A stretch of 53,133 nt of DNA from the IMG/VR virus record IMGVR_UViG_3300032116_000282, positions 1 through 53,133 of that record; one strand, written 5' to 3'. The notes below the pieces were generated by a model. That model saw only the letters and a program-made list of their open reading frames with translations. It did not search any database and was not told where the DNA came from. Positions 48 through 52,891 of the stretch are shown piece by piece (position 1 is the first letter of the stretch; the number at the start of each line of letters is the position of its first letter). Position numbers and translations under genes: made by a program. This DNA comes from a virus. Its lineage: Duplodnaviria; Caudoviricetes.

Positions 48-344
48 TGCCAAAATGGCAGGTCAAAATGGCAGTTACAAACCTGTTAACTGCCAAAATG
101 GCAACATTAGTTGAGCTACTGCCAAAATGGCAATATAAGAGGGAGTGATAGTCTCGGGCTAGCATAAGTCGAGATCATACTGTCAGAATGACAGTGGTGA
201 CTGCCAAAACGGCAGTATAAGAAGGGGTCATAGTGCCAAAACGGCAGTCGAGTTGGACTGCCAAAATGGCATGCCAAAACGGCAGTCTCCTGGGAGGGTG
301 TAGTCAGAGTGACGACACTGTCAGAATGGCATGTCATAATGACA
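48..344. repeat. Array of 12 imperfect 13-bp palindromes, consensus TGYCA-N3-YGRCA
   Basis: Copies start at 48, 61, 91, 120, 181, 202, 234, 259, 272, ~302, 319 and 332, e.g. TGCCAAAATGGCA, TGTCAGAATGACA, TGCCAAAACGGCA; spacing irregular. Confidence 0.92.
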
Positions 345-392
345 GGCCGACCTAGTATTAGGAAACGTGATAGTTTGATATCAAACGACAAA

Positions 393-421
393 AAGGATAG
401 GTGAGATTATCACCTATCCTT
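393..421 (-). terminator. Intrinsic terminator downstream of the ParB-like gene
   Basis: AAGGATAGGTGA-GATTA-TCACCTATCCTT hairpin running into a T-tract on the minus strand, ~50 nt after the stop at 472. Confidence 0.75.
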
Positions 422-471
422 ATAGTTTCAGATTGTGAGAGAATTAGATTCTCTACTTGTTTGATATCAAA

Positions 472-1872
472 CTATTCTGCTTTCGCTTTCGCTTTCGACT
501 GTTTCACAAATCCGATATCGACTCCGCCGAAGCATCGATAGTACGGGCTGACTTCTCCCTTAACCTCCCTATACGTAGTCCATACGCTCGAAGTCATATC
601 TCCCCCAATGTAGTTGGTAACTAGTGCCACCATTGCCGACATTGAAGCGGGGGACGTCTTGGCCCAAAGATATTTCTTCTTGGCTTGTGACTTCTTGTCA
701 TTCTTGATTCGTTCGAATAGATCCGAGAATACCATAGAGAACGGTCCACTGTCCGCTGTAGTTGCTCCGAGTGCTCCGAGGAATCCTTCGACAAGTTCCC
801 AGTCGATTACCAAGGGTTCATCTTGAAGGATTGCGGCTTTCGCTGCGATCTTCCGTTCAGCGTATTCCTCAGGGGTCTCGGAAGGATCTCGGACGATTGA
901 CGCAAGCCGTTCGTTAGTTGCATCCTCTCCGTTGGATGCCAGAACGAGAGCCGTTGCAATGACTGCGGGGGAGAACAATTCCGAAAATTGCCTATCGTAC
1001 TTCCCGGATTGACTTCGTTGCGATTCGAAAACGTAGGTGACGAATCGCGTGACTTCATCCTCTCCACCGAGTCTATCGACCAAGTCGAACCGCTCTTCCT
1101 GGGGGAGTTTGTCGCCAGTGGAACTAACGTCGTTACCCTTCATTCTCTCCGAGATACACCCCGTTAATTTCTTTCGCAAGTCAATCAGAGACTTGTCTCG
1201 GAGTCCCTTCATTACCGCTAACGTATCGTGTTCACCCGATAGCTTGGTTTGAACCGCTTCAACGACTTCCAACGATATGATCGTGTCGTCGGTAGTGTCG
1301 TCGTCGGTCGATTTCCTTGCCCTTGCCTTGTCCGCTAGGTCACGCCATTGCGGGGGCAATCCCAGGTGAATGTAAATCGTTCCGAGTGGTAGCCCGGCGG
1401 CCCGAATAAGCATTAACATTCCGTACCGATGCTGGCCCGAGATGATAGTACCATCCCAACAGTAGGTAATCGGGTCCATTGCAGACAAGCCCCATAAGCC
1501 ACGACTTCGCACGTTGCTATATGTACCGAGTTTGCCGATTGGACCAACACGAGAGGGACTGTAACGCCTATTGTTGGGGTTACGTGTTGCGACAAAGGAT
1601 TCCTTGCCGATGGTAATGAAGGGGAGACTCCCTTCCCCTGCGGCTTCCAAGCCCATAAGAAATTCCAGAACGCCGGGATTGTCCAAGTCTACTTGGTACA
1701 CTTCGGAGAACTCCGAAACGTGTTGATTAAGCGTTGCTATCGCATCGCTAGTGAGTTTGGCGAAACGGTTTGCACTAGATGCCGCAAGTCGGCTTGCTTC
1801 GTTCTGTGGGCCAATGCAATGCTTTGCAAAGGCTGATTGCAATTCGGCTACGGACGACAACTTCTTGACCAT
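472..1872 (-). CDS. ParB/Srx-like (DGQHR-type) N-terminal domain protein
   Basis: Motif series NxxNRR..G-L-W..PI.Y..DG.IISGQHRY..G-L..D..R.R..D resembles phage ParB-like/DGQHR proteins; GGGG upstream of ATG. Confidence 0.65.
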   Translation of the reverse strand: MVKKLSSVAELQSAFAKHCIGPQNEASRLAASSANRFAKLTSDAIATLNQHVSEFSEVYQVDLDNPGVLEFLMGLEAAGEGSLPFITIGKESFVATRNPNNRRYSPSRVGPIGKLGTYSNVRSRGLWGLSAMDPITYCWDGTIISGQHRYGMLMLIRAAGLPLGTIYIHLGLPPQWRDLADKARARKSTDDDTTDDTIISLEVVEAVQTKLSGEHDTLAVMKGLRDKSLIDLRKKLTGCISERMKGNDVSSTGDKLPQEERFDLVDRLGGEDEVTRFVTYVFESQRSQSGKYDRQFSELFSPAVIATALVLASNGEDATNERLASIVRDPSETPEEYAERKIAAKAAILQDEPLVIDWELVEGFLGALGATTADSGPFSMVFSDLFERIKNDKKSQAKKKYLWAKTSPASMSAMVALVTNYIGGDMTSSVWTTYREVKGEVSPYYRCFGGVDIGFVKQSKAKAKAE

Positions 1873-1959
1873 AATAAACCCCCGTAATGGGATAGAGTAA
1901 GCAATTGCGACGGTCTATCGCATTGCCGATAACGTAGTGCGAACTATTCGCACTATCGA

Positions 1960-2002
1960 AAGCCCAGCATGGAATCGAACCATGCTTAAACCGTATGGGC
2001 TT
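1960..2002 (-). ncRNA. tRNA-like minihelix (acceptor stem plus T-arm only)
   Basis: Minus strand AAGCCCA-TACGGTTTAA-GCATGG-TTCGATT-CCATGC-TGGGCTT; canonical GGTTCGATTCC T-loop; no D or anticodon arm and no encoded CCA. Confidence 0.55.
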
Positions 2003-2011
2003 GGTTGGTTG

Positions 2012-2269
2012 TCAGCAGTCTAGGATACCAAGCAAAACGGCTTGTTTTGCTTCCGATAGTTCAGCCCGTAGTTGATTCTGTACGTTAAGCATTCGTGACA
2101 TAGACTCACGCATTTCTATGATTGTCTGTTCTTGTTCCCGAAGTCTCAAAAGTAGAATCTCTTTGTGTCTCTTTTGCTGTTCGACTTCGTCGGCACAAAT
2201 TTGGATCATTTGCCGATAGTTTGCAATTGCTTGCCGATACGTTGCGTCTAGCCGTTCTGAAGATTCCAT
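2012..2269 (-). CDS. Small coiled-coil hypothetical protein (85 aa, from MESSERL)
   Basis: Heptad-rich helical sequence; the upstream extension to 2428 runs through regulatory-looking DNA. Confidence 0.6.
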   Translation of the reverse strand: MESSERLDATYRQAIANYRQMIQICADEVEQQKRHKEILLLRLREQEQTIIEMRESMSRMLNVQNQLRAELSEAKQAVLLGILDC

Positions 2270-2381
2270 TTTGTTTCCCGTTCGTTTGTGTTGCGGTTCG
2301 CGTCGTTGCGTCGTTGCCCCGACACAAACATCATCGGCCCGAGTTTGCAGAAATCTACTGGCAAAGTTATCGGAATTGTCG

Positions 2382-2406
2382 TAAGTCGTTACGTACCAAC
2401 GACTTA
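2382..2406. promoter_or_regulatory. Perfect 9-7-9 inverted repeat TAAGTCGTT-N7-AACGACTTA
   Basis: Read directly; a related site lies at 51682-51706. Confidence 0.55.
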
Positions 2407-2685
2407 AAAAAATAAATTCCTTTCCCATTTTGCTAGTTGGACACTTAGTATTTCAACCACCAAAAGGGGGGTATGGTCTGCAATGGTCGGAATACCGACA
2501 CTAACGACCGATAAGGGAAGTCTAGTTGCCATAAAGAAAATTCGGGCAATTCGACTTTCTATTCTAACGACTTTGTAACCTATACACGTACGCGGAATAT
2601 CGGAGTTGCGTACACACGAGAAAATAGTATGCCAAACTTACGTTACAAACTTGTTAGCTATCCAATTTGTAATGTGGCCCATTCG

Positions 2686-2829
2686 GGTGGGATCGAATTG
2701 ACTACACCCCCAAATAGGTGGGATCGAATTGACTACACCCCCATTCGGGTGTCCTCAAATTGACTACACTGTAGTCAAAGTGATGACACTGTAGTCAAAT
2801 TGACTACACTGTAGTCAAATTGACTACAC
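2686..2829. repeat. Second palindrome array: two 27-bp direct repeats plus four 20-bp tandem units TGTAGTCA-N3-TGACTACAC
   Basis: GGTGGGATCGAATTGACTACACCCCCA at 2686 and 2717; 20-bp units at 2750, 2770, 2790 and 2810. Confidence 0.92.
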
Positions 2830-2931
2830 CGCCCTACATTACAAAATTGTTAGGTAACAAAACCGTTAGGAAAACTCCTAGGCGATCTACTAGGGGGGTG
2901 TCCCAGGGGGGGTGTACGTGTATACATATTT

Positions 2932-3038
2932 CTGGGTTTTTTCTGGGTTTTTTCTCTCACGTATATGTATACGTCTGGGTTTTTCTGGGTTTTTTGTTGG
3001 GGAATCGGTGCACGTATAGAACGATATCTGGGTTTTTT
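2932..3038 (+). repeat. Five phased CTGGGTTTTT repeats next to G-runs (candidate bent packaging or origin site)
   Basis: Copies at 2932, 2943, 2975, 2985 and 3028. Confidence 0.7.
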
Positions 3039-3092
3039 GTGGCAAAGAAAGAGGGATAGTGAGTGTATCGGTTAAGATATACTCAGTATCCC

Positions 3093-3311
3093 TCAGGCCA
3101 GACAAGGATATTCGATACGATATCCTTGGGAAGAATAAGAATCAAGAACGGAGTTCAAGTTATCTCCGGTTACTGTTCGAGGTGGAACTGGAAAGGATGA
3201 ATCAAGATTCTGAATGACAAGTTCAAACAAGTCAATTCCGATTTCGAATACTTCGACGACAACGATCATCGAGGAAGGAACGTACTCGCTGAGAGTTCTG
3301 AGTGCTTGCAT
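3093..3311 (-). CDS. Hypothetical protein
   Basis: 72-aa ORF downstream of the promoter at 3450-3477; AAGG upstream of ATG. Confidence 0.55.
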   Translation of the reverse strand: MQALRTLSEYVPSSMIVVVEVFEIGIDLFELVIQNLDSSFPVPPRTVTGDNLNSVLDSYSSQGYRIEYPCLA

Positions 3312-3398
3312 GATTTACCTTGTGATAGTGAGGATTCGAGTTGCTGAGTTCGACAACGAATAGTAAATTCCATTTAGGGGAATTTAGCTATGAGTTTG

Positions 3399-3739
3399 GT
3401 ATCATCAAAAGATACTAAATCGCGTGGTCGTAGTTTCTTGAGTCAAACCATTATACACAAGGGAGAGAGTAAGGCAAGAATATCACAAAGATTCTAAGAT
3501 GGTATCATATTATGATACTAACCCGCGTTCGGCAACTACTCCCCCTATTTTGGAAAGTCCGGTTTAATATCATATAATGATACCATACCGCCGCGTTATG
3601 GGGAGGGGAGGGAGGGGGTTTATAGGCCCATGAAGGGGGCTAGAATCGCATAAGAAGCGTCGGCGGGTTTAACGGGAATGGAAACCCGCGAGTGTACGAG
3701 AACGATTCTGGAGAGCGGGTTAGTATCACAGGAAGATAC
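3399..3739. promoter_or_regulatory. Cluster of four RTATC-N7-GATAC operator-like palindromes
   Basis: Sites at 3399-3415, 3502-3518, 3567-3583 and 3723-3739. Confidence 0.65.
3450..3477 (-). promoter_or_regulatory. Sigma70-type promoter TTGCCT-N16-TATAAT
   Basis: Same geometry as promoters at 33017 and 52976; flanked by GTATC-N7-GATAC sites at 3399 and 3502. Confidence 0.65.
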
Positions 3740-3801
3740 CACATCGAGTGGTGAGGGAAGAATGTACTCAACTACGAGATACTAATGAGATACTCACCGT
3801 C

Positions 3802-4302
3802 CTACTTTTCACTCAGAGTAGTCTTATCTACGATAATCCTCTCCTCATGCTTTTCCTGGGGAGGATCTGGGAAGGAGAGATAGATGAGGTTCAGTGTGTG
3901 ATTCATGAGGGTACTAGAGAATGGTAGCCCTTGTTGTTGTGCTGAATCTCTGAGCCATGATAGGATTGTTCGTTGGTTACGACGACATCCTTCTACTCCC
4001 CAAGCATCCATGATTGCAGCTCGTTCTTCACAGTTGCAAGTAGGATCTTTAGCTACGAACCATGAGAGGATCGAAGCTAGCTTAGTTCCAGGTCCGGTTC
4101 CCACTTTATGGAGCTTCGGTAGTCCAATGGAGGTTAGCACTCCATCGGCTATAAGCGTGGTCACGTGGTTAATACTTCTGGGTTTTTTACACAGAGAACA
4201 TGCCTTGCAATCTTCCTGGGAGGGGGAGTACTCTGTGTCTGTGAGTAGAGAGATGATGTTGCAGGTTTCATACTCAGTGTAGTATTCACAACGTTCGGTC
4301 AT
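3802..4302 (-). CDS. Cys-motif protein (CxxCxxC and CxC), candidate redox partner
   Basis: CKACSLC and GPGTKL..CNCEER..MD.WG..C motifs; ATGA overlap with the upstream gene. Confidence 0.75.
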   Translation of the reverse strand: MTERCEYYTEYETCNIISLLTDTEYSPSQEDCKACSLCKKPRSINHVTTLIADGVLTSIGLPKLHKVGTGPGTKLASILSWFVAKDPTCNCEERAAIMDAWGVEGCRRNQRTILSWLRDSAQQQGLPFSSTLMNHTLNLIYLSFPDPPQEKHEERIIVDKTTLSEK

Positions 4303-5447
4303 TGACTCTTTCCTCTTGGTCTAGCATTTCTCCATTCTTCCCAGTCGATACCGGTTTTATATTGGTCACTGATCCACTTTCTTCCACGTTCAAGAGTGAC
4401 TAAGTGCCAGTGTACTGGGTGAGCACTATGGAAGAACATTCTCTCTGTGATCCAGTCGAGTTTATAGTTCCTCTCCAAGTCCCAAGGAAGCCAGTAGTCC
4501 CACATGGTTTGTCCGATACCGAACTCCATCTGGGGTAGACTCCTTACGTGTTCTGGGAATAGAAGGAAAGCATCTAGTCCCCAATCTTCTGGTTTGGCTG
4601 TACTGTAATCGTTTTCCCAGTTGTATCGAATACCGGTAGCTATCTCTTTGTTGGCATAGCTTCGTAACAATCGAGCTTGATCTCCATAGATAGCAATATC
4701 TGAATTGATCAGAAGGATTGGATTGTCTATCTTTAGGCTTATGTCCATAAGACTATTGATACGTTGGGTTGGGAACTCATACATTGTAGTAACGTTGGGA
4801 CATTCTACCCAGGTATCAACTTGAGGATACATAGAAGTAAGTCGTTCAATTTCCTCAGCCGTATTAACAGCAATGATTCTCAATCCGAAATACTTCCAAG
4901 AGTTAAGGCATCTTTCTTGTACGTCGAGATGCTTTGGAAGTAGAGAAAGAGAAGTGACTGCTGGAAAAGGTAGGCGAGGTTGTTGAAGTTTTCCCCAAGT
5001 AATGTCAGGACGATAGAGGAGTTTTGCTTCCTCTAATGTGAAGGTTGGTTTACCAAGTTTGATGTTGACTTCATTGTGGATCATCACACCCCATTCAAAG
5101 AATGCTTCTGGGGAGGAGAAGTCTGGTGGATGGATTGTGATAATTGCTTTAAAATCCTCTTGACAAGAACATTGAGCTGGGATAAAGTATTGCCACATCT
5201 CGAAGAATACTGGATCACACCCACGGTATCGGTGTAGAAATAACCATGCTCTCCGTCCTTGATATGCTGTTGTTGCAGCAGTATCCTGGGAGAGTCTTGG
5301 TGTTTCCTGTACCAGCCGTCTTTGTTCGGCAGTACGTGGTTGTGGGACTTTCAAGAGTTCTCTTGTTGGAGAATCTTGTGCATCTGATCTTATGAAAACA
5401 GCTCCACCAAACGGATTGATAATTGTACGTTGTGTTGGTCTGGTCAT
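4299..5447 (-). CDS. Erv1/ALR-family FAD-linked sulfhydryl oxidase domain fused to a putative GT-A glycosyltransferase-like domain
   Basis: aa 64-145: GRRAWLFLH ... IPAQCSCQEDF ... W-x4-HNEVNIKLGKP, matching Erv GxxxWxxLH / Cys pair / HNxVNxxLGKP; C-terminal ILLINSDI, GLDAF and WDYWLP motifs. Confidence 0.8.
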   Translation of the reverse strand: MTRPTQRTIINPFGGAVFIRSDAQDSPTRELLKVPQPRTAEQRRLVQETPRLSQDTAATTAYQGRRAWLFLHRYRGCDPVFFEMWQYFIPAQCSCQEDFKAIITIHPPDFSSPEAFFEWGVMIHNEVNIKLGKPTFTLEEAKLLYRPDITWGKLQQPRLPFPAVTSLSLLPKHLDVQERCLNSWKYFGLRIIAVNTAEEIERLTSMYPQVDTWVECPNVTTMYEFPTQRINSLMDISLKIDNPILLINSDIAIYGDQARLLRSYANKEIATGIRYNWENDYSTAKPEDWGLDAFLLFPEHVRSLPQMEFGIGQTMWDYWLPWDLERNYKLDWITERMFFHSAHPVHWHLVTLERGRKWISDQYKTGIDWEEWRNARPRGKSQ

Positions 5448-8835: not shown

Positions 8836-9118
8836 TATTAAATTCCCTTGCCGCTTCGTTTAGAACAACATTGAGTTCATTACGGTCGTAGAACTGGTAA
8901 ACTTTCTTGAGATACTCGATCGCTTCTAGTCGATTGATTTTAACTAGTTGCGGTTTTCCGTTCATCTCAATAACAGTAAGGGGACGGAGTTTGCTTGGAA
9001 CAAAGAATGCTCTATAGGTTTCATAGAACAGCGGCACGATCTCATTTTTCTGGGAGGAGAGAGACCTTAGTAGCTGGTGTGCTAGTGCTGATTCTTGTTG
9101 TCCTTGGATTATGGTCAT
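8828..9118 (-). CDS. Hypothetical protein
   Basis: 96-aa ORF overlapping both neighbours in operon fashion. Confidence 0.6.
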   Translation of the reverse strand: MTIIQGQQESALAHQLLRSLSSQKNEIVPLFYETYRAFFVPSKLRPLTVIEMNGKPQLVKINRLEAIEYLKKVYQFYDRNELNVVLNEAAREFNNG

Positions 9119-11903: not shown

Positions 11904-12182
11904 TCATTGCCTGGGGGAGTGGAAGTTGTGTACTGCTGCTCTTAGTGCGTCTGGGCCTTTATTAAGGGAGGCACGCTTGCTATTTGGAAGCAGATCAGAT
12001 GATTGTGCAGAACAGGCCCAATAGATTTGATCACGTTCTTGAGCTATCTGCTCGATGTACATGATTTCACCTATGGTTCTGTGATCTATTGAGATTCCTC
12101 TGGACTCGAGTCTGAAGGCAATGTGGATGATTCCGGAGAGTCGATCTTCAGTTGCTTCATTTCTCTTTTCATTTGATCCCAC
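11904..12182 (-). CDS. Tail assembly chaperone, gpT-like second frame
   Basis: Overlaps the upstream chaperone in the -1 frame, immediately before the tape measure gene. Confidence 0.6.
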   Translation of the reverse strand: MGSNEKRNEATEDRLSGIIHIAFRLESRGISIDHRTIGEIMYIEQIAQERDQIYWACSAQSSDLLPNSKRASLNKGPDALRAAVHNFHSPRQ

Positions 12183-12529
12183 AGATCCCGAAGTACCCCC
12201 TTCTTCTGGGGGCTGGAAAAATTTATGACGGCGGCCCAGAATACTTCTCGGAATCCTTCGATGGCATCCGGCTCACTGTCAAGAAGTTCTAGGAATTTCT
12301 CAAAGTCGAATGCGACTTGTGGTTCAAGAAAGAACCAGCAAAGATTGAGAGTTACTTCGTCATCTAGTAACAATCGTCCCGCAGTTGTATTGGTTACTTT
12401 TTCGTCAATGAACAACTTGAGGATTTCAAGATCGAATCTACTGGGGAGAGTACTGTATGCTAGCTTCCATGTGATCTCGATGGGATAGGTTTTACCGTTG
12501 AACAGGAACTTTGCGATTGGTTTGGACAT
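12086..12529 (-). CDS. Tail assembly chaperone, gpG-like
   Basis: Lies between tail tube and tape measure genes. Confidence 0.7.
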   Translation of the reverse strand: MSKPIAKFLFNGKTYPIEITWKLAYSTLPSRFDLEILKLFIDEKVTNTTAGRLLLDDEVTLNLCWFFLEPQVAFDFEKFLELLDSEPDAIEGFREVFWAAVINFSSPQKKGVLRDLWDQMKREMKQLKIDSPESSTLPSDSSPEESQ

Positions 12530-12636: not shown

Positions 12637-12727
12637 ATTTTAAAATTTATACAAGTAAGGTTCCCTCCCAGGAAAAAGGAAGGACCCCAACGAACAGCAG
12701 ATCTTCAATGAAAGATTTGACTGTGAG

Positions 12728-13632: not shown

Positions 13633-14076
13633 CTACGGATTCATGTTGAATTGGCGAGCCATGCTCACACTAAATTCTTTGGGGATCTTCCCTCTTGCAA
13701 TAAGTTGTTTAAGGGTGTGATTCATAAATGATCGTTCAGGGTACTGATAGTACGCTTTACGACTAAAGTATGTACCACCAAATTCATGAATGTGAGGAAC
13801 AGGTTCGTTAAAGAAGTTACTCCCAGGAAATTTAACAGGACCAATGATTGCACCATTTCTATAAACGGTGTATTCAATGATCCGCAATCCACCCCTCGTT
13901 TTAGCGAAGGGTGGATGTCCTGCTGGAGCTGTTCTTTTACTTACCCTCAGAGTCCGAATACATGCACCACGGATAAGTGCTGCTACTCCTCTAAGACCCT
14001 TTGTTTTTCCTTTATCAACTGTGTAGTTGAATTTTTGGAGATAGAAGATTCCTCGAAATGTTGCACTGAATGTCAT
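13633..14076 (-). CDS. Neck / tail completion protein (HK97 gp10-like)
   Basis: Basic protein with PGxPP-like, HEFGG and YPERSFM motifs. Confidence 0.7.
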   Translation of the reverse strand: MTFSATFRGIFYLQKFNYTVDKGKTKGLRGVAALIRGACIRTLRVSKRTAPAGHPPFAKTRGGLRIIEYTVYRNGAIIGPVKFPGSNFFNEPVPHIHEFGGTYFSRKAYYQYPERSFMNHTLKQLIARGKIPKEFSVSMARQFNMNP

Positions 14077-34040: not shown

Positions 34041-34201
34041 GCGTGGTATCCTTCGGAGTCGTTTACTGTAGCTAATGAAGTAAAGTCCTTTTCAGGATAT
34101 TCCTTGATTTCTTCTGGGTGAGGAATATGACAGCAGATTCTATGCTGTGGGTTGGTGGAATCTGTATATGTCCAAAATTTACAGTCTTTGCAGTGTATCA
34201 T
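33989..34201 (-). CDS. Small Cys-rich (Zn-binding-like) phage protein
   Basis: CKDCKFW..C..C..DFGC pattern. Confidence 0.6.
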   Translation of the reverse strand: MIHCKDCKFWTYTDSTNPQHRICCHIPHPEEIKEYPEKDFTSLATVNDSEGYHAWLCTSPDFGCIAGVQK

Positions 34202-43183: not shown

Positions 43184-44017
43184 TTACACGCCAGCAGACT
43201 TTGTCACCTCCTTTCGATAGCCTTCTGGGAGAGCTTTGAATAAGTTGTTCCATGCTTCTTCTGGGTTTTTACCCATAGGAATAACTGGTGGCATGTTCCA
43301 ACGATTTTTGGCTTGATGTGCTGTGGAACTGGTGGTATAAAGAATCCTCTCTGAGAATTCTTTGGCTTTTCCTTCCATAGCTAAACGAGTTGAACGGTCT
43401 GCTTCTGTGACACGGGTAATGTCAACAGAAAGGTTGAGGAAGAATATGAACCCTGCCCAAGCTGTGAGTGTGGTTCTCATTCCTAGACCTTTTTCTCCGT
43501 CATCCAAATTGATAACGTGGCATAAATAATCTGGACCCATTGTATTTGGGAGACTAATTGTGCCGACATGACCAATAAAGATGACGTTAATCCCTTGGTC
43601 TGTTTTATAGGAACACAGATCAAGGTAATCTTGCAATACCGCTGGTGATTCCCTACGAGCACCGGCTGAGTAAGAATTGAAAGCGACTCGATCATTCTTG
43701 TAATAGGTCTGGCAGACGTAATCGAATATCTTGGACTGGAGACCCTTGGAACTGTCGATGAGCAGAGTACCAGATTGTACTTTCTTCGTTTCATCAACAA
43801 GTTGCTCAAAGGTCTTAATTCGCACATTCGTGCTATTCTCCGGAACTCCACCAACCATTTCGAGGTCATCGTACCCGGACTCCAGAATCGATTTACAATG
43901 AACCGGTCCCGGAAATCTAAGCCCCAAAGAGGTCTTACCCATACCTTCACGACCATAAATCACTCCACTTAAACCACGCATATTATTCTCTTCCAAAAAG
44001 GGCACAAGATAATTCAT
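43184..44017 (-). CDS. AAA_24 / Sak4-like recombination ATPase
   Basis: IYGREGMGKTS, LLIDS, FIGH and AKNR motifs. Confidence 0.85.
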   Translation of the reverse strand: MNYLVPFLEENNMRGLSGVIYGREGMGKTSLGLRFPGPVHCKSILESGYDDLEMVGGVPENSTNVRIKTFEQLVDETKKVQSGTLLIDSSKGLQSKIFDYVCQTYYKNDRVAFNSYSAGARRESPAVLQDYLDLCSYKTDQGINVIFIGHVGTISLPNTMGPDYLCHVINLDDGEKGLGMRTTLTAWAGFIFFLNLSVDITRVTEADRSTRLAMEGKAKEFSERILYTTSSTAHQAKNRWNMPPVIPMGKNPEEAWNNLFKALPEGYRKEVTKSAGV

Positions 44018-44071: not shown

Positions 44072-44716
44072 TCAGGATGTCACCGCATCTTTCTTTGCTG
44101 CTGAGTCTGCTGTATCGAAGGTTCCCTTTGGATAACGCTTCTTGAGTTTTTCGATGTTTTGTTGGATAACCAACATCAATGGTGAAGTCATGGGTTGGTC
44201 GTAGTAGATTACCGCAAGTTCTTTGAGAGCATGAACCATTTGTTCTACGGCTACGACCATCTTGTCTTGGCTGTATTCTTGTCGGTAGATCTCGAATCGT
44301 TTGATTTGATCAACCAGTGCTTCTGCTTTGACAGAAACGTTGCTCAAAACAGAATAGTTGGGATACTTCTTAGGTTCCTCGTATGCACCCTCAAGTGTAA
44401 TTCCTGGGAGGTCGTACAGGTTGATGATCATTTGCAGATAGTAGCAGAGATCACCTACTTCTTTCATTTCTGCTGATGTGTCTTGGAAAGGAGCAGATGA
44501 TTTTACTCCTTCAAGTTCGATTTGGTATTCAAGCATCTCTCCGGCAAATGCCATACCAACGTGGAGACGGTCAAGACGAAGGTTGAGTTCATCAACGAGT
44601 GAAACGTAATGATTGCCTAAGTCGTGAAGGTTCTGGAATGATGGAAGGGACTTGGTGTGATGAGCTGCTGATGCAAAAGTGGTGGTTACGAAATCGGAGT
44701 AGTTGAGAATGGCCAT
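44072..44716 (-). CDS. MazG-like nucleotide pyrophosphohydrolase
   Basis: AGEMLE..KEVGDLCYY and N.EKLKKRYP motifs. Confidence 0.75.
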   Translation of the reverse strand: MAILNYSDFVTTTFASAAHHTKSLPSFQNLHDLGNHYVSLVDELNLRLDRLHVGMAFAGEMLEYQIELEGVKSSAPFQDTSAEMKEVGDLCYYLQMIINLYDLPGITLEGAYEEPKKYPNYSVLSNVSVKAEALVDQIKRFEIYRQEYSQDKMVVAVEQMVHALKELAVIYYDQPMTSPLMLVIQQNIEKLKKRYPKGTFDTADSAAKKDAVTS

Positions 44717-45771
44717 TATTGGTAGTCCTGTGAGAGTTCTTTGAAGAATTGGTCAACTGGGATTAAGTCGGAGAAATTGGTGTTACCGACGAGGTAGCTC
44801 CAATAGTCCTTCTTGAATTTGCTAGTTCGAGCAGGGTCGAATACTCGAAGCGGCTTTTTGTGAAACATATGATTGTAACAATCTGGGTTCATTGGATCGA
44901 ATGAATCAGAGAGTGTGTATTCATACATATAACAAATTGCGTCAATGATGGGGTTGATTGTTTCAGCAAACATCAGTTGGATTTTTTCCATTGAATGTTT
45001 GAATATGTACTGGTCAACCCACAAAAACGATTTCTGGGAGACTGGATAGTCTCCGTAATGATGCTTGAGATAAAGTCTTTCTATATATGCTTTGTTTCTT
45101 TCTCCAGCTTGTCTTGCTGGACAGTTCCATTGAAGTTCAGGGATTTTGATGTTATCGTATACGACCGTATCACAAGATACAGATTGGTTAAGTGCGTATA
45201 GATAAATGTTGAGTTGTAAATCAAGATGAATCTCGGATCGAAATAGGTGTCGATCGTAAGATTCTTTTGATTTGTGTTCTATCATGATTGTAGCAGCATC
45301 ATGAAGATAATTTGTATCTGTCAAATGAGATGATACTCTAGTACCAACTCCGTCCATCTTACCTTTCAATTTGATTAGATGGTTCTTGGTTCTGTGATCA
45401 ACAGCAAATTCTTGTTCTGTTGCAATCGAGTAGTTAGTTTTGTATTTGTCGGGATACAAGTCTAACATCAATCGGACAGAATGTAAAGTTGTTGCATCAA
45501 TATTAAGGTATCGACGTTCTTCTTCAGCTAGAACATCAAGGAGCCTCGCCCGCTTTATTTCTGGGAGGGAGGTTACACGTTCTGGTTCAGGGAGTACATG
45601 CTCTAGTCCTTTATGGAACATATTACCCCAAAGGAGGTTCTGATTTAGAACGGTTTGTTCTTCAAGTCCCAGTCCGTAGTATAGGACAAAACAGAATGGA
45701 TCTTGAAGATACTTTCCGATCATTGATTGAGTAATACCACTCTTATAGGGACCAGCCCATTTCCATTTCAT
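44716..45771 (-). CDS. PD-(D/E)XK exonuclease (RecB/Cas4-like)
   Basis: G..FH, GKMDG, IEHKS and QLNIY motifs. Confidence 0.8.
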   Translation of the reverse strand: MKWKWAGPYKSGITQSMIGKYLQDPFCFVLYYGLGLEEQTVLNQNLLWGNMFHKGLEHVLPEPERVTSLPEIKRARLLDVLAEEERRYLNIDATTLHSVRLMLDLYPDKYKTNYSIATEQEFAVDHRTKNHLIKLKGKMDGVGTRVSSHLTDTNYLHDAATIMIEHKSKESYDRHLFRSEIHLDLQLNIYLYALNQSVSCDTVVYDNIKIPELQWNCPARQAGERNKAYIERLYLKHHYGDYPVSQKSFLWVDQYIFKHSMEKIQLMFAETINPIIDAICYMYEYTLSDSFDPMNPDCYNHMFHKKPLRVFDPARTSKFKKDYWSYLVGNTNFSDLIPVDQFFKELSQDYQ

Positions 45772-46447: not shown

Positions 46448-47149
46448 TCAGTTGTCTTTCTGTAGTTCGAGCAGGAAGGTTTCTAGGAGACGAGCTTGGC
46501 GTTTGATTGTGAGGAGTTTGTATTCGAGTCTAGCTATTGCGGCTGGATGAGTTAAGGAGATGGAAGGGAGTTGTGTATGAAAATTGTCTCTGGCAAGAGC
46601 ACCCAAGTGTACGACAGCTTGGGGTCGATATGAGGATAGTAGTTCGGTAATGTGTGGACGACAAAGTTCCATTTCTTTTCGAGTGGGTTGTCGGTTGTGG
46701 TCGATAGCGTCGAAGTGAACACCTGGTTCTCTAAGGGCTGTAGTTGCTTCGTCGTCGGTAAATGTGTCAATTGGATCTCCGTTTTTATCGTAGAGTTGAA
46801 CGATAGTCATTGGTTGACAACAAACGAGGTTTGTTATGCAATAATTGAATGATGCTCGAACGAATGAAAAGAGGAGGTCTAGGATTCTTCCGGAAGTTCC
46901 AGTAAAGGGAATTCCAGTAGCATTTTCTGTAACTCCTGGGGCTTCACCAATAAAGAGGATTCTACTGGGGGTGGTTCCGGCAAAGGTGTGGGTTCCGTCT
47001 CTTCTAACACAGGTTCTTCGTCGTCCAACACATAATCCGCAGTTGGTACAATTTCGCCAGTCGGCATGGCCTGTATAACTATTGTAGACGAGATTTGTGC
47101 CTCGTATCGGATTCCCGATAGGATCTTGTTTAACATTTCCATCGAGCAT
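46448..47149 (-). CDS. Uracil-DNA glycosylase, family 4-like
   Basis: CTNCGLC, FIGEAPG..E..G.PF.G.SG, TNLV.C.P and HPAA motifs. Confidence 0.9.
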   Translation of the reverse strand: MLDGNVKQDPIGNPIRGTNLVYNSYTGHADWRNCTNCGLCVGRRRTCVRRDGTHTFAGTTPSRILFIGEAPGVTENATGIPFTGTSGRILDLLFSFVRASFNYCITNLVCCQPMTIVQLYDKNGDPIDTFTDDEATTALREPGVHFDAIDHNRQPTRKEMELCRPHITELLSSYRPQAVVHLGALARDNFHTQLPSISLTHPAAIARLEYKLLTIKRQARLLETFLLELQKDN

Positions 47150-47397
47150 CGTCTGTCTCCGTTGAGAATTGCGTGAAAGTTTGGAGTTGACATTCCGATT
47201 CGTTCACAGTATTGTCGGTAGTTACCTGGAGCGAGTCTGTCAATTAAGTCTTTTATGGCGTAACCTTCTCGCTGCTTCAGCAAGAGTATCTGGTCTTGTC
47301 TCGAAGGATCGTTCAGGACGATAGTTAGAGTGTCTAAACTCCGGATTGCGTCTCTCGAGAACTCGACAGATCGTTTCAATGGTGGTGGTTGGTCCAT
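46879..47397 (-). CDS. XRE-family HTH protein overlapping both neighbours
   Basis: YRQYCERIGMSTPNFHAILNGDRRCSMEMLNKI is a typical Cro/CI-type HTH; start uncertain. Confidence 0.6.
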   Translation of the reverse strand: MDQPPPLKRSVEFSRDAIRSLDTLTIVLNDPSRQDQILLLKQREGYAIKDLIDRLAPGNYRQYCERIGMSTPNFHAILNGDRRCSMEMLNKILSGIRYEAQISSTIVIQAMPTGEIVPTADYVLDDEEPVLEETEPTPLPEPPPVESSLLVKPQELQKMLLEFPLLELPEES

Positions 47398-47761
47398 CTT
47401 TTATATCCGTTGACATGAAATAAAGTATGACCCAGTTGGCGAGAATGAGATCATTGTGTTTGGTGTAGTCTCGTTTCATTCCGTGGTAGCTAGTGTGTCC
47501 AGTTCCGTATCCTTGGAGTTCGATTGCAACCTTTTCCTGGGGGAAGCAGAAGTCTATTTCCCATTTACGGATTGGTTTAGCTGGATCAATGGTTGGAAGG
47601 TGGACTGTATGATGGAATACGATTGGGTATGTGCTGTGGTTTCTCCAAAGATTATGGAAATGTTCTTCAAAGTTGCTGTCGTATAGACCCTGGCTGGATC
47701 GGAACTTCTTTTTCATTGGGTTGTACTTCCTGTTTTGATTCAAAGAACTCGTTCTGGACAC
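47240..47761 (-). CDS. Vsr/DUF559-like endonuclease
   Basis: E..F, IDFC.P..KVAIELQG...H, D..K.N and W.ILYF motifs. Confidence 0.8.
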   Translation of the reverse strand: MSRTSSLNQNRKYNPMKKKFRSSQGLYDSNFEEHFHNLWRNHSTYPIVFHHTVHLPTIDPAKPIRKWEIDFCFPQEKVAIELQGYGTGHTSYHGMKRDYTKHNDLILANWVILYFMSTDIKDGPTTTIETICRVLERRNPEFRHSNYRPERSFETRPDTLAEAARRLRHKRLN

Positions 47762-48143
47762 CCAGAAGTAAAAGTTCTTTACGTGCTTCCATTAGGCAAA
47801 ACAAGCATTTCTGGAATGCTGAGGTTATCAATACGAATGAATCAAGGCGTTGGTCATCTTCTCTTATTTCTGGGGAGACCGGGAATCCAGGGTTGGATGA
47901 GATTTGGTCTACTTTGGGGTGTGTGTATTCCATCTGAGTGAGAGTAGCACAAAGACGGATGCTGTTCTGAATGTTGGTGTAGAGTTGGCCTTCATGACTC
48001 ATATGTGAAATCCTGTCAGAAAATGAATGATGTCGTGAACGAGAGAACCGATTCCGTAGATGACGAGAAAGAGTACAATAGCAATAAGTGCTTTTGATGG
48101 TGGTGGATTTGAAGTAAAATATCTCATGAGGATTCTCTATCAC
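47667..48143 (-). CDS. Hypothetical protein
   Basis: ORF in the operon; start uncertain. Confidence 0.45.
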   Translation of the reverse strand: MIENPHEIFYFKSTTIKSTYCYCTLSRHLRNRFSRSRHHSFSDRISHMSHEGQLYTNIQNSIRLCATLTQMEYTHPKVDQISSNPGFPVSPEIREDDQRLDSFVLITSAFQKCLFCLMEARKELLLLGVQNEFFESKQEVQPNEKEVPIQPGSIRQQL

Positions 48144-49281
48144 TATTCTCTAAGTCAAAGTAATGAATACCAACTGGACAACGTGGGATACCGGATGGGA
48201 AGAATCCCTCGAATTCAATCTTGAGGAACTTCCCGATGTAGTTTTCTTTGAAACGAAGAATGTTCTGTCGTTTCTGTTTGGTTCCCTTGAAGGAACAATT
48301 GAATTCTTCTCCGTGGCTGGTCTTACAAACAAAGATTCCTTGTTGTTCAGAACCAGCAACTACGTCAATGATTTCGAATTCACTATCGATGAATTTCTTC
48401 ATCTTGAGTAGATTCTTAGATCGTTTGTTTACTTCATACGGAGCATGAAGATTACGAATAATCATCCCCTCGTATTTTTGAGAGAGGTATAATTGGAATT
48501 GGTCACTGATGATTTCATCGGTGATGTTGGCTGGATCTGGGACTATGGTCGTCTGTACGAGCTTGAACGGACACTTGTGTGAGAAGAAACGGTTCTTTTG
48601 GTACGGGTGGTTGGGTGAGGTCTTGAAGTAGATATAGGCTTCCTCCATTTCCATAACGATCCTATGTGCTTCTTCAATTCGTGCTTCGAACGGTGCTTCT
48701 GTGTCGACGACATCAAATACGTGATACTCAATTTCGAGAGATACTCGTGGGTCGGGTGTGCTACGCAGAGTGTAACTCTCAATGACATTGAAGTCTGTGT
48801 TGGGGATATAAAGCTCACCATCGAGCTTGATTCCTTCTGGAATCCGTTGGAGGTACATCTCCAAGTGAGGGCATGAGGTAATAAGTCGATTCTTGCGAGA
48901 AAGTAACCCGTCTCTTGAGAGGATACACCGTACTCCATCCAACTTAGGTTGAAAGGCATATCCCGGAAAATCTGGATTACCTTTGTACTCATGTGCGAGC
49001 ATAGGAAGCGACGGAGGGGCCGTTGGAATCGTAGAGGTATATCCCTTGCGATCTTCCTGATAACGAACTCGACTATGGAATTCTGCGATAGCTGCGTCGA
49101 TTGAGTCACAAGGTATGTCCTGATTTGCGAGAAGGGTTTCCTGGGGAGGAGATGCTGCGGATGCCATAGTCATACGCCCCCACATGATACGGACGGATGT
49201 TGGTTCTTCAATGACTTCGGCTTTCCACCAAGAGATATCATTGAAGTTGTTCAGGACATAGAGGGTCTGTTTTAACGACAT
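48124..49281 (-). CDS. ATP-dependent DNA ligase with N-terminal WGR-like segment
   Basis: KLDGVR, LDGELY, YHVFD, EGMIIR and LLKMK motifs. Confidence 0.93.
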   Translation of the reverse strand: MSLKQTLYVLNNFNDISWWKAEVIEEPTSVRIMWGRMTMASAASPPQETLLANQDIPCDSIDAAIAEFHSRVRYQEDRKGYTSTIPTAPPSLPMLAHEYKGNPDFPGYAFQPKLDGVRCILSRDGLLSRKNRLITSCPHLEMYLQRIPEGIKLDGELYIPNTDFNVIESYTLRSTPDPRVSLEIEYHVFDVVDTEAPFEARIEEAHRIVMEMEEAYIYFKTSPNHPYQKNRFFSHKCPFKLVQTTIVPDPANITDEIISDQFQLYLSQKYEGMIIRNLHAPYEVNKRSKNLLKMKKFIDSEFEIIDVVAGSEQQGIFVCKTSHGEEFNCSFKGTKQKRQNILRFKENYIGKFLKIEFEGFFPSGIPRCPVGIHYFDLENSDRESS

Positions 49282-49560: not shown

Positions 49561-51048
49561 TTACTCCGAATAAAGGTAGTACATGTCTTGTTTTGAACGT
49601 GTTTGTGCTACGAAATCCACGTTAATTTCTTGTTCTCGTTGGATTTCAGTCTTAGCTTTATTGGACGGAACGGGTGGATTTAGGATACCTACGATCTTAG
49701 ATTCGAGTCCTTTTGCCTTGTGAACGGTCGATAAACGGAGAAAATTGGTGCCTTTTGGGGGTGAAAGTAGGTCATTTATGACACTTTCGAAGTCAGAAAG
49801 TACCGTACAAGACTTCAAAACGTGTCGAATACAGTCAATTTTGTCAGAAGTTGCCTGTTGAGCCATAGCATCTCCCGATTGAAGGCATCGAGTCTCGTAT
49901 TGATCGAGTTTGTACGATAAATCGTCCAAATCTCTAGCATTTCGGTTCTTTACGGTCGAAATGAGGGATTTAGCCAAAGTATCACCTAAGGTCTTGCATG
50001 GAATGCCGTGTTTGATCAAATCTAGGGCAGTTTTGACCAAAGGAGCGTTATATCGACATACAATCAAAGGATTATGCTGTAACATCTCCTTTGCCCAAGC
50101 TGTTCTGTCAGTATAATTGATTCTTTCGATCAATCCTGGGAGTTTTCCTGGGAGGGGTCGTACCTGAGCTGTGGGTCTGATACGATTAGCGTTGTCAGCG
50201 TGGTTTGGTGGGAGTCTGAAAGAGGTTTTAAGGGTAAACTCTGCTGAGATGATCTCCCTAATGCGGTCGATGGAATACGGGTCTGCACCTGAAAAGGCGT
50301 TAATTGCTTGGTTTTCATCTCCACAAAATACCAAGTGTTCGCAGAGTTTGAGTGACAAAGCGAGTCTGGCCGGGGACAAATCTTGACATTCATCTACGAA
50401 TCCTATTGGATAGAGTGGGGTATTGAGTAGCCAAAGAGCTAGCCAAACTTGATCGATGTATGGAATACCAATACGACGGTCAACTTGTTTGGATGCTCGG
50501 ATGATTTGAGCACACTGAGACACCATTTCAGAGTGAGGCTTGAATGGTGCTAGCTCACTGTACTTCATTTGAAGAATGTAGATGTTCTCGTCCGATGCTT
50601 CAAGAAGTTCTTCCTTGAGTTTCTCTACGTATCGGAGTGAGGACAGCCAAGCAAACTTGTTCTTGTTCTGAGACATGGACTGTCCAGTGATCTTTTCAAC
50701 AAGAATTTCTCCAGCTTTCTCATTGATCGGAATAAACCCGTAGTGCTTCTTGAGAACAGTTGCTCCCCAACCGTGATGAGTTCGTACTTCACAGTCTTTA
50801 TGGATTCTTTTCTCAAGTTCTTTAACGATAGTACGGTTGTAAGCCATATAGATAGCTGGTACTGCCGTTTCTCCTTCTTTCCTGGGGAAGTTGGTTCGGC
50901 ACCAGTCATATATGATGGCTTGTTCTTCGGTGTTTTGGAATCGTTCTAACCACATGGTCGGGTTGACAGAACGGTAGTAGAGGTAAGCATCGACCAAGGT
51001 GTGGGTCTTTCCACACCCTGGTCCGGCAGATATCAGTGCATTGGTCAT
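49561..51048 (-). CDS. UvrD/Rep-like superfamily 1 helicase
   Basis: AGPGCGKT, VDECQD, GDENQAI, STVHKAKGLE and VAQTR motifs. Confidence 0.92.
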   Translation of the reverse strand: MTNALISAGPGCGKTHTLVDAYLYYRSVNPTMWLERFQNTEEQAIIYDWCRTNFPRKEGETAVPAIYMAYNRTIVKELEKRIHKDCEVRTHHGWGATVLKKHYGFIPINEKAGEILVEKITGQSMSQNKNKFAWLSSLRYVEKLKEELLEASDENIYILQMKYSELAPFKPHSEMVSQCAQIIRASKQVDRRIGIPYIDQVWLALWLLNTPLYPIGFVDECQDLSPARLALSLKLCEHLVFCGDENQAINAFSGADPYSIDRIREIISAEFTLKTSFRLPPNHADNANRIRPTAQVRPLPGKLPGLIERINYTDRTAWAKEMLQHNPLIVCRYNAPLVKTALDLIKHGIPCKTLGDTLAKSLISTVKNRNARDLDDLSYKLDQYETRCLQSGDAMAQQATSDKIDCIRHVLKSCTVLSDFESVINDLLSPPKGTNFLRLSTVHKAKGLESKIVGILNPPVPSNKAKTEIQREQEINVDFVAQTRSKQDMYYLYSE

Positions 51049-51446: not shown

Positions 51447-51640
51447 GACATTAAATCTTTCTGTATTCTGTTTGAGAGTTCATCGAATTTGTACTCATAC
51501 GTATGAGTAAACCAAAGTTCTTTGACTAGATCGAGGCAGAGTTGTGCTTCTCTGAATCTGCGATGGTTGATGAGAGACAGAATTTTATCTTTCTGTCTTA
51601 CAAGTAGAAAATCCATTTCTTCTTCAGTTAGAGTGGTCAC
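51362..51640 (-). CDS. Hypothetical protein
   Basis: AGGAG RBS before GTG start. Confidence 0.55.
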   Translation of the reverse strand: MTTLTEEEMDFLLVRQKDKILSLINHRRFREAQLCLDLVKELWFTHTYEYKFDELSNRIQKDLMSCRQITSQLAALQETNPVSKSDTPSTVK

Positions 51641-51681
51641 AGTATCTCCTTATGATATCTGTTGGTCGCGGAAAAATGTTG

Positions 51682-51706
51682 TAAGTTCTTGGGAAATAAG
51701 AACTTA
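51682..51706. promoter_or_regulatory. Perfect 9-7-9 inverted repeat TAAGTTCTT-N7-AAGAACTTA
   Basis: Read directly; related to the site at 2382. Confidence 0.55.
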
Positions 51707-51857
51707 GGAATTAGTATCATGGTGGTGATATTAAGTCGGGTTTCTAAAAAATGGGGTGGTGACTTTCACGAAGCGGAAAAGGATCATACCATGATACCAT
51801 CAAGCATAAAATATGCTATAAATCCGATACAGACACAAAATAGAATATCTATAAAAA

Positions 51858-52202
51858 TCATGGACATCCCCATTCTTTATCCAAACGGAGAATGGTGTCG
51901 AGTCTCACAAGAGGTACAGAAAGGAAGCACTTAAAGATACGATCAAACATATCTGGGAATTTACAGATAATTTCACAGAGACGGATCAGCTTCCGCAGCT
52001 TTTCTGGGTGGAGAGTGTAGAGAGTGTCCCTGTTGGGTGTAAGAGTGAATCTCTTAAACTTAGGGAGCTTAACACGGAGATACCGATAGAGGAAGGCGAG
52101 TATTCTCTCTTCGGTTCTGGCTGACCAGTTGTATACAATAGAGAAGATGGTAAGCCTGCAAGATACATAGGACCACGAACGATTGACTAAAACTTTCATC
52201 AT
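51858..52202 (-). CDS. Hypothetical basic protein
   Basis: AAGGA RBS; 114 aa. Confidence 0.55.
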   Translation of the reverse strand: MMKVLVNRSWSYVSCRLTIFSIVYNWSARTEERILAFLYRYLRVKLPKFKRFTLTPNRDTLYTLHPEKLRKLIRLCEIICKFPDMFDRIFKCFLSVPLVRLDTILRLDKEWGCP

Positions 52203-52260
52203 ACAATCCTTGAAATGAACGTCAGAACTCGTACGGAATAAATTGTAAGAACAACACGAA

Positions 52261-52539
52261 CTATGTTGTATGGTTTTTGAGAGCTTCTGCCATCTTCTTG
52301 GTTAGCTTCTCATGTTTCTTCTTTGACTTCATGAGTTTCTTTACCATAGACTTCATGGTAGCATCTTCTCTGGCCTGGATGGCCTTTTTCCTGGGGGACC
52401 AGGGATTTGGTCCTACTGTGAATGCTTTGGGTAGTCCTACTCCATCTCCATCGTACTTGGTTGGTTGATGACCTGGATCGGAATTTTGATTATCCATAAT
52501 GTTCTTTCCGTAATTCGATGTCTTGATGATCTTGACCAT
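52261..52539 (-). CDS. Hypothetical Lys-rich protein
   Basis: 92-aa ORF. Confidence 0.55.
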   Translation of the reverse strand: MVKIIKTSNYGKNIMDNQNSDPGHQPTKYDGDGVGLPKAFTVGPNPWSPRKKAIQAREDATMKSMVKKLMKSKKKHEKLTKKMAEALKNHTT

Positions 52540-52576
52540 GATACTTTCTTTCTTGATGAAAACAAAAGTTAATAAA

Positions 52577-52891
52577 TTATCTGTGACCGACTGTTTTGAT
52601 TTGAAGCATAATTGGCTCTAACAACTTGTTAGCTCGGGCCACCGCTTCTTTCTGGGGGAGGAAATCTAGCTGGAGCATAGAGAGAGTGAGAGGGGAATCG
52701 AAGAATGCCTTTCTGTAGTTGAGGGTGAAGTTGGGGATAAGTAGCTTTAGGTCTGCTGGTGACTTCATTTTGGGTCTGATAGTGTATCCCTTGTGAAATA
52801 GAATACATCCAAGAATATCGTACTGTTCACCGTCAAATAAATAAATTGAGGGGTGACGAAGTAGAATCAAGGGAATTTCGATTGTAGTCAT
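52577..52891 (-). CDS. Hypothetical protein
   Basis: First ORF after the promoter at 52976. Confidence 0.6.
   Translation of the reverse strand: MTTIEIPLILLRHPSIYLFDGEQYDILGCILFHKGYTIRPKMKSPADLKLLIPNFTLNYRKAFFDSPLTLSMLQLDFLPQKEAVARANKLLEPIMLQIKTVGHR

Follow-up and report, generated by a model that had tools for sequence, protein, structure and literature searches.

A strand-polarised CTGGG-type word under selection in a freshwater phage clade: a tentative replication signal for a primase-AAA+ helicase

Few genomic words are both polar and over-represented, and those that are can be telling: Chi, KOPS and SRS each exposed a directional DNA-reading motor. KOPS are polar G-rich 8-mers read by the winged-helix gamma domain of FtsK. 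Among primases, DnaG of Escherichia coli uses the template triplet CTG, and the sites of the phage T7 primase are GTC-based pentamers. In the excerpted text of Zheng et al. 2025 (PMC12315714), the Chi sites of lambdoid phages that lack Rec modules number 8-32 and are almost always oriented to be active for RecBCD entering at the right cos end, and phages with Rec modules are mostly without Chi. The same excerpts describe 23 Chi sites in phage LLS (orientation 20:3, one per 1.86 kb) and a Chi orientation of 32:0 in phage MD8, where Chi is the commonest octamer; in both phages the sites face an enzyme entering the right end and cluster there. Here, we describe a word of this kind, CT-G(3-6)-AG, in the DNA of an uncultured tailed phage (IMGVR_UViG_3300032116_000282). 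The window analysed is the complete IMG/VR virus record of 53,133 bases. Polar over-represented words are a known kind of signal; new here are the variability in length, the position antisense to the genes, the density and the constancy throughout a clade.

An exact regular-expression count found CTG{3,6}AG 48 times on the + strand and twice on the - strand of the window, compared with about 47 and 2 counted by eye in the first-pass annotation, whose 18 example coordinates are all true sites. The + strand copies start at 290, 1099, 3856, 4216, 5108, 5286, 7266, 7614, 8670, 9050, 11911, 12441, 12883, 14379, 16323, 17326, 18128, 19418, 20077, 23860, 24073, 25607, 28992, 29173, 29913, 30787, 30918, 32058, 32755, 33710, 34437, 35039, 35727, 36933, 38897, 39712, 41607, 42402, 43225, 44404, 45034, 45561, 46412, 47870, 49141, 50136, 50148 and 52652, which reproduces the mean spacing of about 1.1 kb given earlier ((52652-290)/47 = 1.11 kb). 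The G-run does vary in length, as had been claimed, with runs of 3, 4, 5 and 6 at 25, 16, 6 and 1 sites, respectively. For the three commonest forms, a zero-order expectation gives 2.68+0.64+0.15 (~3.5) copies on + and 1.78+0.37+0.08 (~2.2) on -, near the 2-3 per strand first estimated from base composition. Every long open reading frame (ORF) lies on the - strand, together covering ~91% of the window, and the motif strand is antisense to every gene. Within called genes lie 45 of the 48 sites; they occupy all three codon phases, as proposed before, and encode LP(G/E), SQE, PPQE, SP(G/R) and other peptides. One of the reverse-oriented copies, CTGGGAG at 12665-12671 (-), is located in the gap between genes 12086-12529 and 12728-13606, and the other, at 13820-13826 (-), within gene 13633-14076.

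The motif is far more frequent than codon usage predicts. When synonymous codons were shuffled per gene, the 45 observed copies compared with a mean of 6.2 (standard deviation (SD) 2.3, maximum 15, 300 shuffles), and a codon permutation null gave a mean of 4.7 (SD 2.2). With a dinucleotide-preserving synonymous shuffle on a stricter gene set, 37 copies were observed against 11.6 (SD 2.6, maximum 19, 40 shuffles), and CCCAGRA occurred 54 times against 20.3±3.7 when junction dinucleotides were preserved in the synonymous shuffle. All three nulls preserve the proteins, and the third preserves junction dinucleotides as well. Reverse-oriented copies are not depleted but occur as often as chance predicts, with 1 copy vs 2.8 under the synonymous shuffle and 1 vs 1.3 under the dinucleotide-preserving one. 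In a blind scan of 7-mers against synonymous shuffles, the top words were all pieces of TTCCTGGGG(W) in the window and in two related genomes, G001 and G002, with top z scores of 9.3, 13.7 and 9.4, respectively; the strongest word of phage T7 in the same test had a z of 6.4. Pooled over nine genomes, CTGGGG occurred 222 times vs 65 expected (z 21) and CCTGGG 198 times vs 60. Therefore, codon or peptide usage does not produce the motif, which is under selection as a strand-specific DNA signal. The oriented, nucleic-acid-level signal claimed at first reading is thus supported by the frames and the shuffles: its enrichment persists when codons and junction dinucleotides are preserved, and its strand bias persists on exact counting.

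Of 474 G-runs of at least three on the + strand, 119 are preceded by CT and 82 are followed by AG; both flanks occur together 48 times, compared with 20.6 expected if they were independent. Beyond these flanks, T is found at -2 in 41/48 sites, Y at -1 in 42/48 and R after AG in 42/48. The wider set on + comprises 119 CTGGG and 72 TYCTGGG, the latter being the best-conserved core. In this genome AG is no more than the preferred 3' end: AG outnumbers TG by 48 to 9 in the window, G001 has 39 AG and 41 TG, and the relative G008 prefers a fifth G. The 5' core is constant among relatives and the 3' part differs (AG, TG, GG), giving, for the antisense strand, the working consensus 5'-TTYCTGGG(G)WG-3'. 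The sites are preceded by a C-rich patch (C at -12 in 28/48 in the window). In relatives this patch drifts over -8 to -21 (e.g. -9, -10, -15), partly with period 3, and C at -12 was left out of the motif as a second element. A hairpin at the motif was also rejected, as flanks ±1 to ±6 pair only as base make-up predicts. In DNA folds the pairing probability at the word is 0.48 vs 0.47 in controls, an Rfam scan gave no match, and no covariation was found in the flanks.

The motif marks a large uncultured phage clade. Related IMG/VR contigs were retrieved whole, first four and later nine, making ten genomes with the window. All ten code on one strand, and in each TYCTGGG lies on the antisense strand, with + and - counts of 72 and 11 in the window, 90 and 16 in G001, 55 and 8 in G002, 24 and 5 in G003, 36 and 7 in G004, 34 and 3 in G007, 34 and 3 in G008, 33 and 3 in G009, 24 and 4 in G010, and 31 and 4 in G011. 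The same skew, for which related phages had been suggested as a check, is thus found in all nine relatives. A search with a primase profile (for the primase of the window, 36379-38406, see below) gave 31 loci, 24 with at least 38% primase identity and seven with at most 29%. The motif is polar in 24/24 of the former, whose G+C ranges from 0.34 to 0.46, and not polar in six of the seven latter; L053, in the latter group, has a ratio of 12:2, yet its top shuffle words are different words. In L047, a 15-kb locus with a distant primase relative, GTCTGTC and CGGCTGTC are enriched on the coding strand (10-11 copies vs ~2 expected), possibly through another repeated signal or a recurring peptide. A 14-nt instance of the word was also searched for in all viral contigs and matched at least 80 stretches; among the matches listed, six clade members are the densest (e.g. 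35:2 in 14.5 kb) and the other 74 lie below them. Of 17 non-clade loci tested among these listed matches, 15 are without excess over codon shuffles on either strand; the exceptions are L231 (antisense, z 2.6, 6 vs 1.7) and L164 (sense, z 3.5), compared with z 6.8 and 3.6 for clade controls in the same test.

Individual sites turn over within the clade. Among 40 window sites in ungapped aligned codons, 11 (28%) are kept in G001 and 15 (38%) in G002, compared with 7-10% for random 7-mers. In farther relatives 0/25 (G003) and 1/30 (G004) are kept and the density is nonetheless retained, so selection acts on the number and orientation of sites and only weakly on their place. The density is approximately one copy per 0.4-1.1 kb, on one strand and genome-wide; 5-kb bins are flat along the genome, slightly higher at the left. 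The spacing is slightly more regular than random (coefficient of variation 0.76-0.91 vs 0.97-0.99, P 0.003 to 0.34). No oppositely oriented gene block was found in the 24 loci and 10 genomes; as all genomes code on one strand, polarity linked to transcription and polarity linked to replication are not separable here.

The candidate reader of the motif is the product of 36379-38406 (-), 675 aa long, in which a CHC2 zinc ribbon and a Toprim domain are followed by an AAA+ ATPase and, at the C-terminus, a winged helix. It matches PHROG primase families and, weakly, Pfam Zn_ribbon_DnaG and Toprim_2; AAA Pfam marks are found in its relatives, and its PDB profile matches are DnaG zinc domains (2au3, 1d0q) and winged-helix regulators. 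Foldseek searches with its structural model (pLDDT 87) matched Twinkle for the N-terminus and MCM, Orc1/Cdc6, poxvirus D5/E5 and NrS-1 for the ATPase part. Cysteines 23, 26 and 43 are invariant in 24 homologues. The protein is a DnaG-type primase fused to an AAA+ ATPase (MCM / Orc1-Cdc6 / D5-like) and a winged helix. No relatives of it were found among 185,579 species genomes; metagenomes gave several hundred, 199 of these proteins at E ≤ 0.001. Among the functions offered in the first-pass annotation, priming has become the leading idea, since the ORF named there is this DnaG-type primase; a Chi-like role is kept, and a packaging or ejection cue is without specific support.

We tentatively propose, with rather low confidence, that the motif is a single-strand replication signal which the phage-encoded primase-AAA+ helicase prefers for recognition or as a start site, and we lean towards a phage-read replication signal over a host-read Chi-like one. 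The motif would act on single-stranded DNA during replication, with the + strand as the template of the lagging strand. By analogy with E. coli DnaG, primer synthesis would begin opposite the T in the C-T-G core; copying of the T-rich tract on the 5' side would yield a primer rich in purines, and the G-run would belong to the site without being copied. Chance would supply too few sites (~3 per strand) for a primase dependent on at least seven bases, and selection would seed the lagging-strand template at about Okazaki-fragment spacing. The rarity of so long a site by chance would then explain the enrichment, the polarity, the even density and the turnover. Several findings speak for priming. 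As expected of a copied template, T conservation falls stepwise in the 5' direction (71-85% at -2, 45-62% at -3 and 39-57% at -4). On the + strand G exceeds C and T exceeds A overall, and the coding strand has far less G than C at its four-fold sites (window, G001 and G002); the sign of this skew fits the one usually tied to the lagging-strand template. A conserved, fitting reader is encoded, a phage ATP-dependent ligase is also present, and the motif has an even genome-wide density and is constant throughout the clade.

Priming is further favoured by five core copies in the same orientation beside iterons, an arrangement that recurs in G001, G002 and G004. In the window they lie in a 1.4-kb non-coding stretch (2430-3800) that carries iteron-like repeats, a CTGGG-T cluster and a G-tract. 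The iteron-like repeats at 2686-2838, two 31-nt direct repeats and three to four 20-nt palindromic units, possibly mark a replication origin. To their right, at a distance of 90-200 nt, five copies of CTGGG followed by 5-6 T start at 2932, 2943, 2975, 2985 and 3028 (2932-3038, +) in the orientation of the genome-wide motif, each adjoining short ACGT-rich palindromes. Similar clusters are found in G001 (4725, 4752, 4872), G002 (464) and G004 (1895, 1923, 4051, 4076, 4104, 4222). The G-tract at 3600-3618 (+) consists of overlapping GGGGAG/GGGAG with four G-runs and 1-nt spacers, and has a counterpart in G001 at 1920. The stretch also holds GGTATCA..TGATACC palindromes at 3396-3417, 3500-3526, 3560-3585 and 3715-3741, with others in a second non-coding place (32976-32996 and 33066-33086); they are probably operator-like sites of one regulator.

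Other observations weigh against priming, beginning with the reader itself, whose link to the motif we infer. The pentamers of the T7 primase are neither polar nor enriched in T7 (39:55, 79:62 and 43:42), and a literature search found no report of selected, polar primase sites. With + as the lagging-strand template, forks would run head-on into all transcription. There is no flip of polarity to the left of the putative origin, where sites 290 and 1099 lie and where G001 has 12 + vs 2 - copies at 1-4500; therefore, replication would need to proceed in one direction only. The G/C skew is absent or reversed in distant motif-carrying members. CTGGG-T clusters are absent from G007-G009, and G010 and G011 have one copy each. 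In a rigid site, a G-run of varying length (3 to 6) between two conserved flanks would be odd, and the signal of regular spacing is weak (P up to 0.34). The genes are co-oriented in every genome examined, so the cause may be linked to transcription. With these points included, it is possible, if doubtful, that a freshwater siphophage clade has evolved a 7-12-nt strand-specific address for priming by, or one-way loading of, its own primase-helicase. If true, these would be the first genome-wide, selected, polar primase/helicase sites and a phage-encoded counterpart of Chi and KOPS.

Among the alternatives, a Chi-like site for a host RecBCD- or AddAB-type helicase-nuclease survives best, although it is unlikely. 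The enzyme would enter at the right end, which carries the early genes and is probably injected first, and would be turned from degradation to recombination by the motif, which it would reach 3' side first; the phage would gain protection or use host recombination. The geometry that this demands depends on the genome ends. The window record looks like a nearly complete genome, cos-ended or circularly joined, and not like the 50% fragment of the CheckV completeness estimate, because relatives of its proteins lie on 50-57 kb contigs and a contig from one run, X7, joins both window ends: it extends beyond the right end by ~12 further bases and then continues with the first bases of the window (53100-53133; 1-20). 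The contigs of the window, G001 and G002 all end 240-300 nt past the same gene. Just inside the left end (46-346) lie at least six palindromic repeats of ~17 nt of the ACTGCCAAAATGGCAGT type, which are possible terminase-binding (cosB-like) sites and serve here only for the direction of packaging. Together with the lambda-type TerL and portal, the joined ends, the alike contig ends and the left palindromes suggest cos ends and packaging from the left. The + strand would therefore have its 3' end at the open right end, and the motif lies on this strand, as the Chi orientation requires, given the presumed direction of packaging.

Besides this geometry, a Chi-like role has precedents in LLS and MD8, as the excerpts of PMC12315714 describe them. 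The G-rich word with its CTGG core resembles the Chi sequences in the excerpted text of PMC8022716. A constant 5' core with a variable 3' part is also seen among proteobacterial Chi variants, and site turnover with kept density fits. Against it, the sites do not become denser towards the right end, the 5-kb bins being flat and slightly higher at the left, whereas those of LLS and MD8 pile up at the entry end in the excerpts, and the cluster of five copies is situated ~3 kb from the left end rather than where the enzyme would enter. The site density is 2-4 times that given for LLS in the same excerpts. The phage has and conserves recombination-type genes, namely those of the AAA_24 protein, the PD-(D/E)XK nuclease and the UvrD-like helicase. 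Throughout a deep clade whose G+C spans 0.34-0.46 the core does not change, so the hosts probably differ, and none of the 17 unrelated viral loci tested, among the matches listed, reaches the excess of the clade. The G-run varies in length, so that the whole is not a fixed word of 5-8 nt, although the fixed 6-7-nt core YCTGGG could qualify as a Chi-like word. No dispersed enrichment of YCTGGGGAG was found in 201 Planctomycetota and 151 Actinomycetota genomes, seven of the genomes counted being flagged as unpublished; as evidence this is weak. In two bacterial genomes, G146 and G084, YCTGGGGAG occurs at about the composition expectation. The one outlier, the planctomycetotal genome G058, carries 792 copies of TCTGGGGAG, which stem from arrays repeated in tandem every ~19 nt at many contig ends (e.g. 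C1:13-224, C2:31-316); this repeat is unrelated and includes the word by coincidence.

A signal linked to transcription or RNA, in which RNA polymerase or another factor would read the word from the non-template strand, or an RNA-binding protein or nuclease would recognise it, is more improbable. The motif is always on the template strand, so every mRNA carries the C-rich form 5'-CWCCC(C)AGRAA-3', and the polarity matches gene direction in all 10 full genomes and 24 loci. This sense form ends in AGGA(A), the commonest ribosome-binding word before starts (22/67), and the full word is found in three start regions. However, the sites lie in all frames and throughout genes, with 3/72 within 20 nt upstream of starts vs ~1.8 estimated, and at 17/48 sites T at -1 gives AGAA in the mRNA, without the GGA core. 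The lack of structure, flank covariation and Rfam matches described above also argues against an RNA signal. The 45 proteins scanned included none recognisable as a phage RNA polymerase or antiterminator, and known signals of this type number 1-2 per operon rather than 50-130 copies. The 3-G form of the motif is identical to a T7 start sequence; a T7-like promoter was rejected, with no upstream conservation and no RNA polymerase among those 45 proteins.

A second candidate reader is the 173-aa product of 47240-47761 (-), a nuclease with a Vsr/DUF559-like (EDxHD-type) fold. A D..E.QG.G.GH block is invariant in 10 sequences of this protein, and its model has a pLDDT of 80. It is a core gene of the replication module and not a sporadic homing endonuclease. 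That it makes strand-specific nicks at YCTGGG, as in T5, or that the motif reflects biased short-patch repair without further function, appears quite improbable. The core C-T-G-G-G is similar to C-T-W-G-G, at which E. coli Vsr acts. The EDxHD-like fold and the place in the replication module would suit such a role, and biased repair would account for the enrichment and for site retention above background. The family assignment is weak, with a Pfam DUF559 match (E 7e-4) below the curated cut-off and Foldseek matches at E 0.01 or worse (the I-Bth0305I catalytic domain 3r3p, TM 0.79 by target, and 3hrl). Moreover, no single-transition neighbour of the core is selectively depleted (non-CpG neighbours are at 0.46-1.8 of expectation), and repair bias alone cannot give 96% strand polarity.

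Slightly less probable still is that the motif, by analogy with KOPS, would be an oriented loading signal for the AAA+ helicase, read through its C-terminal winged helix. In the primase a winged helix does follow the AAA+ motor, the word, an 8-9-mer, is polar and rich in G, and core copies cluster beside the iterons. Winged helices, however, are ubiquitous, a specific likeness to FtsK gamma is not established, the ATPase is MCM-, Orc1/Cdc6- and D5-like rather than FtsK-like, and no genome shows a polarity switch; we also know of no such loading role for replicative helicases. Finally, a by-product of codon, dicodon or peptide usage in a one-strand-coding genome can be dismissed for practical purposes: one-strand phages do have codon-driven polar words (GCTGGTG 21:0 in T7, whose words reach z ~6), but here the enrichment is 3-8 fold under three protein-keeping shuffles and reaches z 21 for CTGGGG over nine pooled genomes, the sites lie in three frames with differing peptides, and copies are present in non-coding DNA too.

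The gene content of the window, all on the - strand, comprises a tape measure protein (9115-11847), a capsid/protease protein (15574-17739), a lambda-family portal (17663-19132), a subtilase (32015-32995), a gpA-type large terminase (34198-36375), the primase and a family A DNA polymerase (38758-40653). These are followed by an AAA_24 protein (43184-44017), a PD-(D/E)XK nuclease (44716-45771), a family-4 UDG-like protein (46448-47149), the small DUF559-like protein, an ATP-dependent ligase (48124-49281) and a UvrD-like helicase (49561-51048). The primase, polymerase, terminase, portal and capsid genes are kept in 8/8 compared genomes. The ligase, the UvrD-like helicase, both nucleases and the UDG-like protein are kept in 7/8, the eighth contig (G004) ending short there. 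A scan for tRNA genes found none in the window. Isolated phages gave no nucleotide match to the window and only remote protein matches; identical DNA was found in freshwater metagenome runs from 12 studies (21 runs listed, all as assembled contigs and none of them from RNA).

Several further features of these genomes were observed. Gene 20384-22252 encodes a 622-aa protein filled by ~18 tandem 66-nt (22-residue) repeats at 20671-22140; it has no family match, and among deposited phages its relatives are confined to four phage records from the Manatee Spring metagenome. Synonymous shuffles predict 14.7 copies of the palindrome CCCGGG in the genes of nine genomes (the window and eight relatives), yet none is present, which may reflect restriction avoidance; other CpG-containing neighbour words are also low in the nine genomes. 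The subtilase and its adjoining gene (window 30730-32995; L056 10001-11485) have side-by-side homologues, 58% and 35% identical, in a Pirellulaceae metagenome-assembled genome. The contig carrying them is 484 kb long and otherwise unrelated to the phage, and this best cellular match is a two-gene cassette rather than a prophage. We read it as a gene exchange and, as the sole host link, a faint hint of the host.

The word constrains codon choice at 70-130 places per 53-kb genome and persists across a large uncultured freshwater clade. If its reader is the phage primase-helicase, Okazaki initiation could be studied with a defined sequence, and the direction of replication would be predictable from sequence. 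If instead a host helicase-nuclease reads it, the word would be the Chi of the freshwater host and a host-prediction marker for the clade. Under either reading, the motif is a simple diagnostic of this phage group.

Compared with the Chi sites of LLS and MD8, as far as the excerpts of PMC12315714 describe them, the motif is likewise a G-rich 8-9-nt word among the commonest, found about once per 1-2 kb, 87-100% in one orientation and facing the open right cos end, here too in the company of a lambda-type terminase and portal. It differs in its even density, the recombination-type genes beside it, the variable G-run and a deep clade of differing G+C.

KOPS and SRS are also polar G-rich octamers served by a winged helix on a hexameric motor, whereas the present genomes have no FtsK-like protein and no flip at a terminus, and their density of sites is about ten times higher. 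The stoperators of cluster A mycobacteriophages share with the motif dozens of asymmetric sites in one orientation relative to transcription. They are 13-14 bp long, mostly intergenic and bound by the immunity repressor of temperate phages; in contrast, 45/48 sites here are intragenic, the short word is variable, and the 45 proteins scanned gave no repressor or integrase. The strand bias of Type III restriction sites in T7 and T3 similarly concerns an asymmetric word nearly all in one orientation in a one-strand phage. That bias results from avoidance of one orientation, whereas here the rare orientation occurs at its chance level and the common one is strongly enriched.

With the sites of DnaG-type primases (E. 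coli CTG, T7 pentamers), the motif shares a C-T-G core, a copyable pyrimidine-rich 5' side and a 3' part that would stay uncopied, and a DnaG-type zinc-ribbon/Toprim primase is encoded here. The known sites are 3-5 nt long, frequent by chance, unselected and non-polar, whereas the sites described here are 9-12 nt long, 3-8 fold enriched and 96% polar, and the primase is fused to an AAA+/MCM-like rather than a DnaB-like ATPase.

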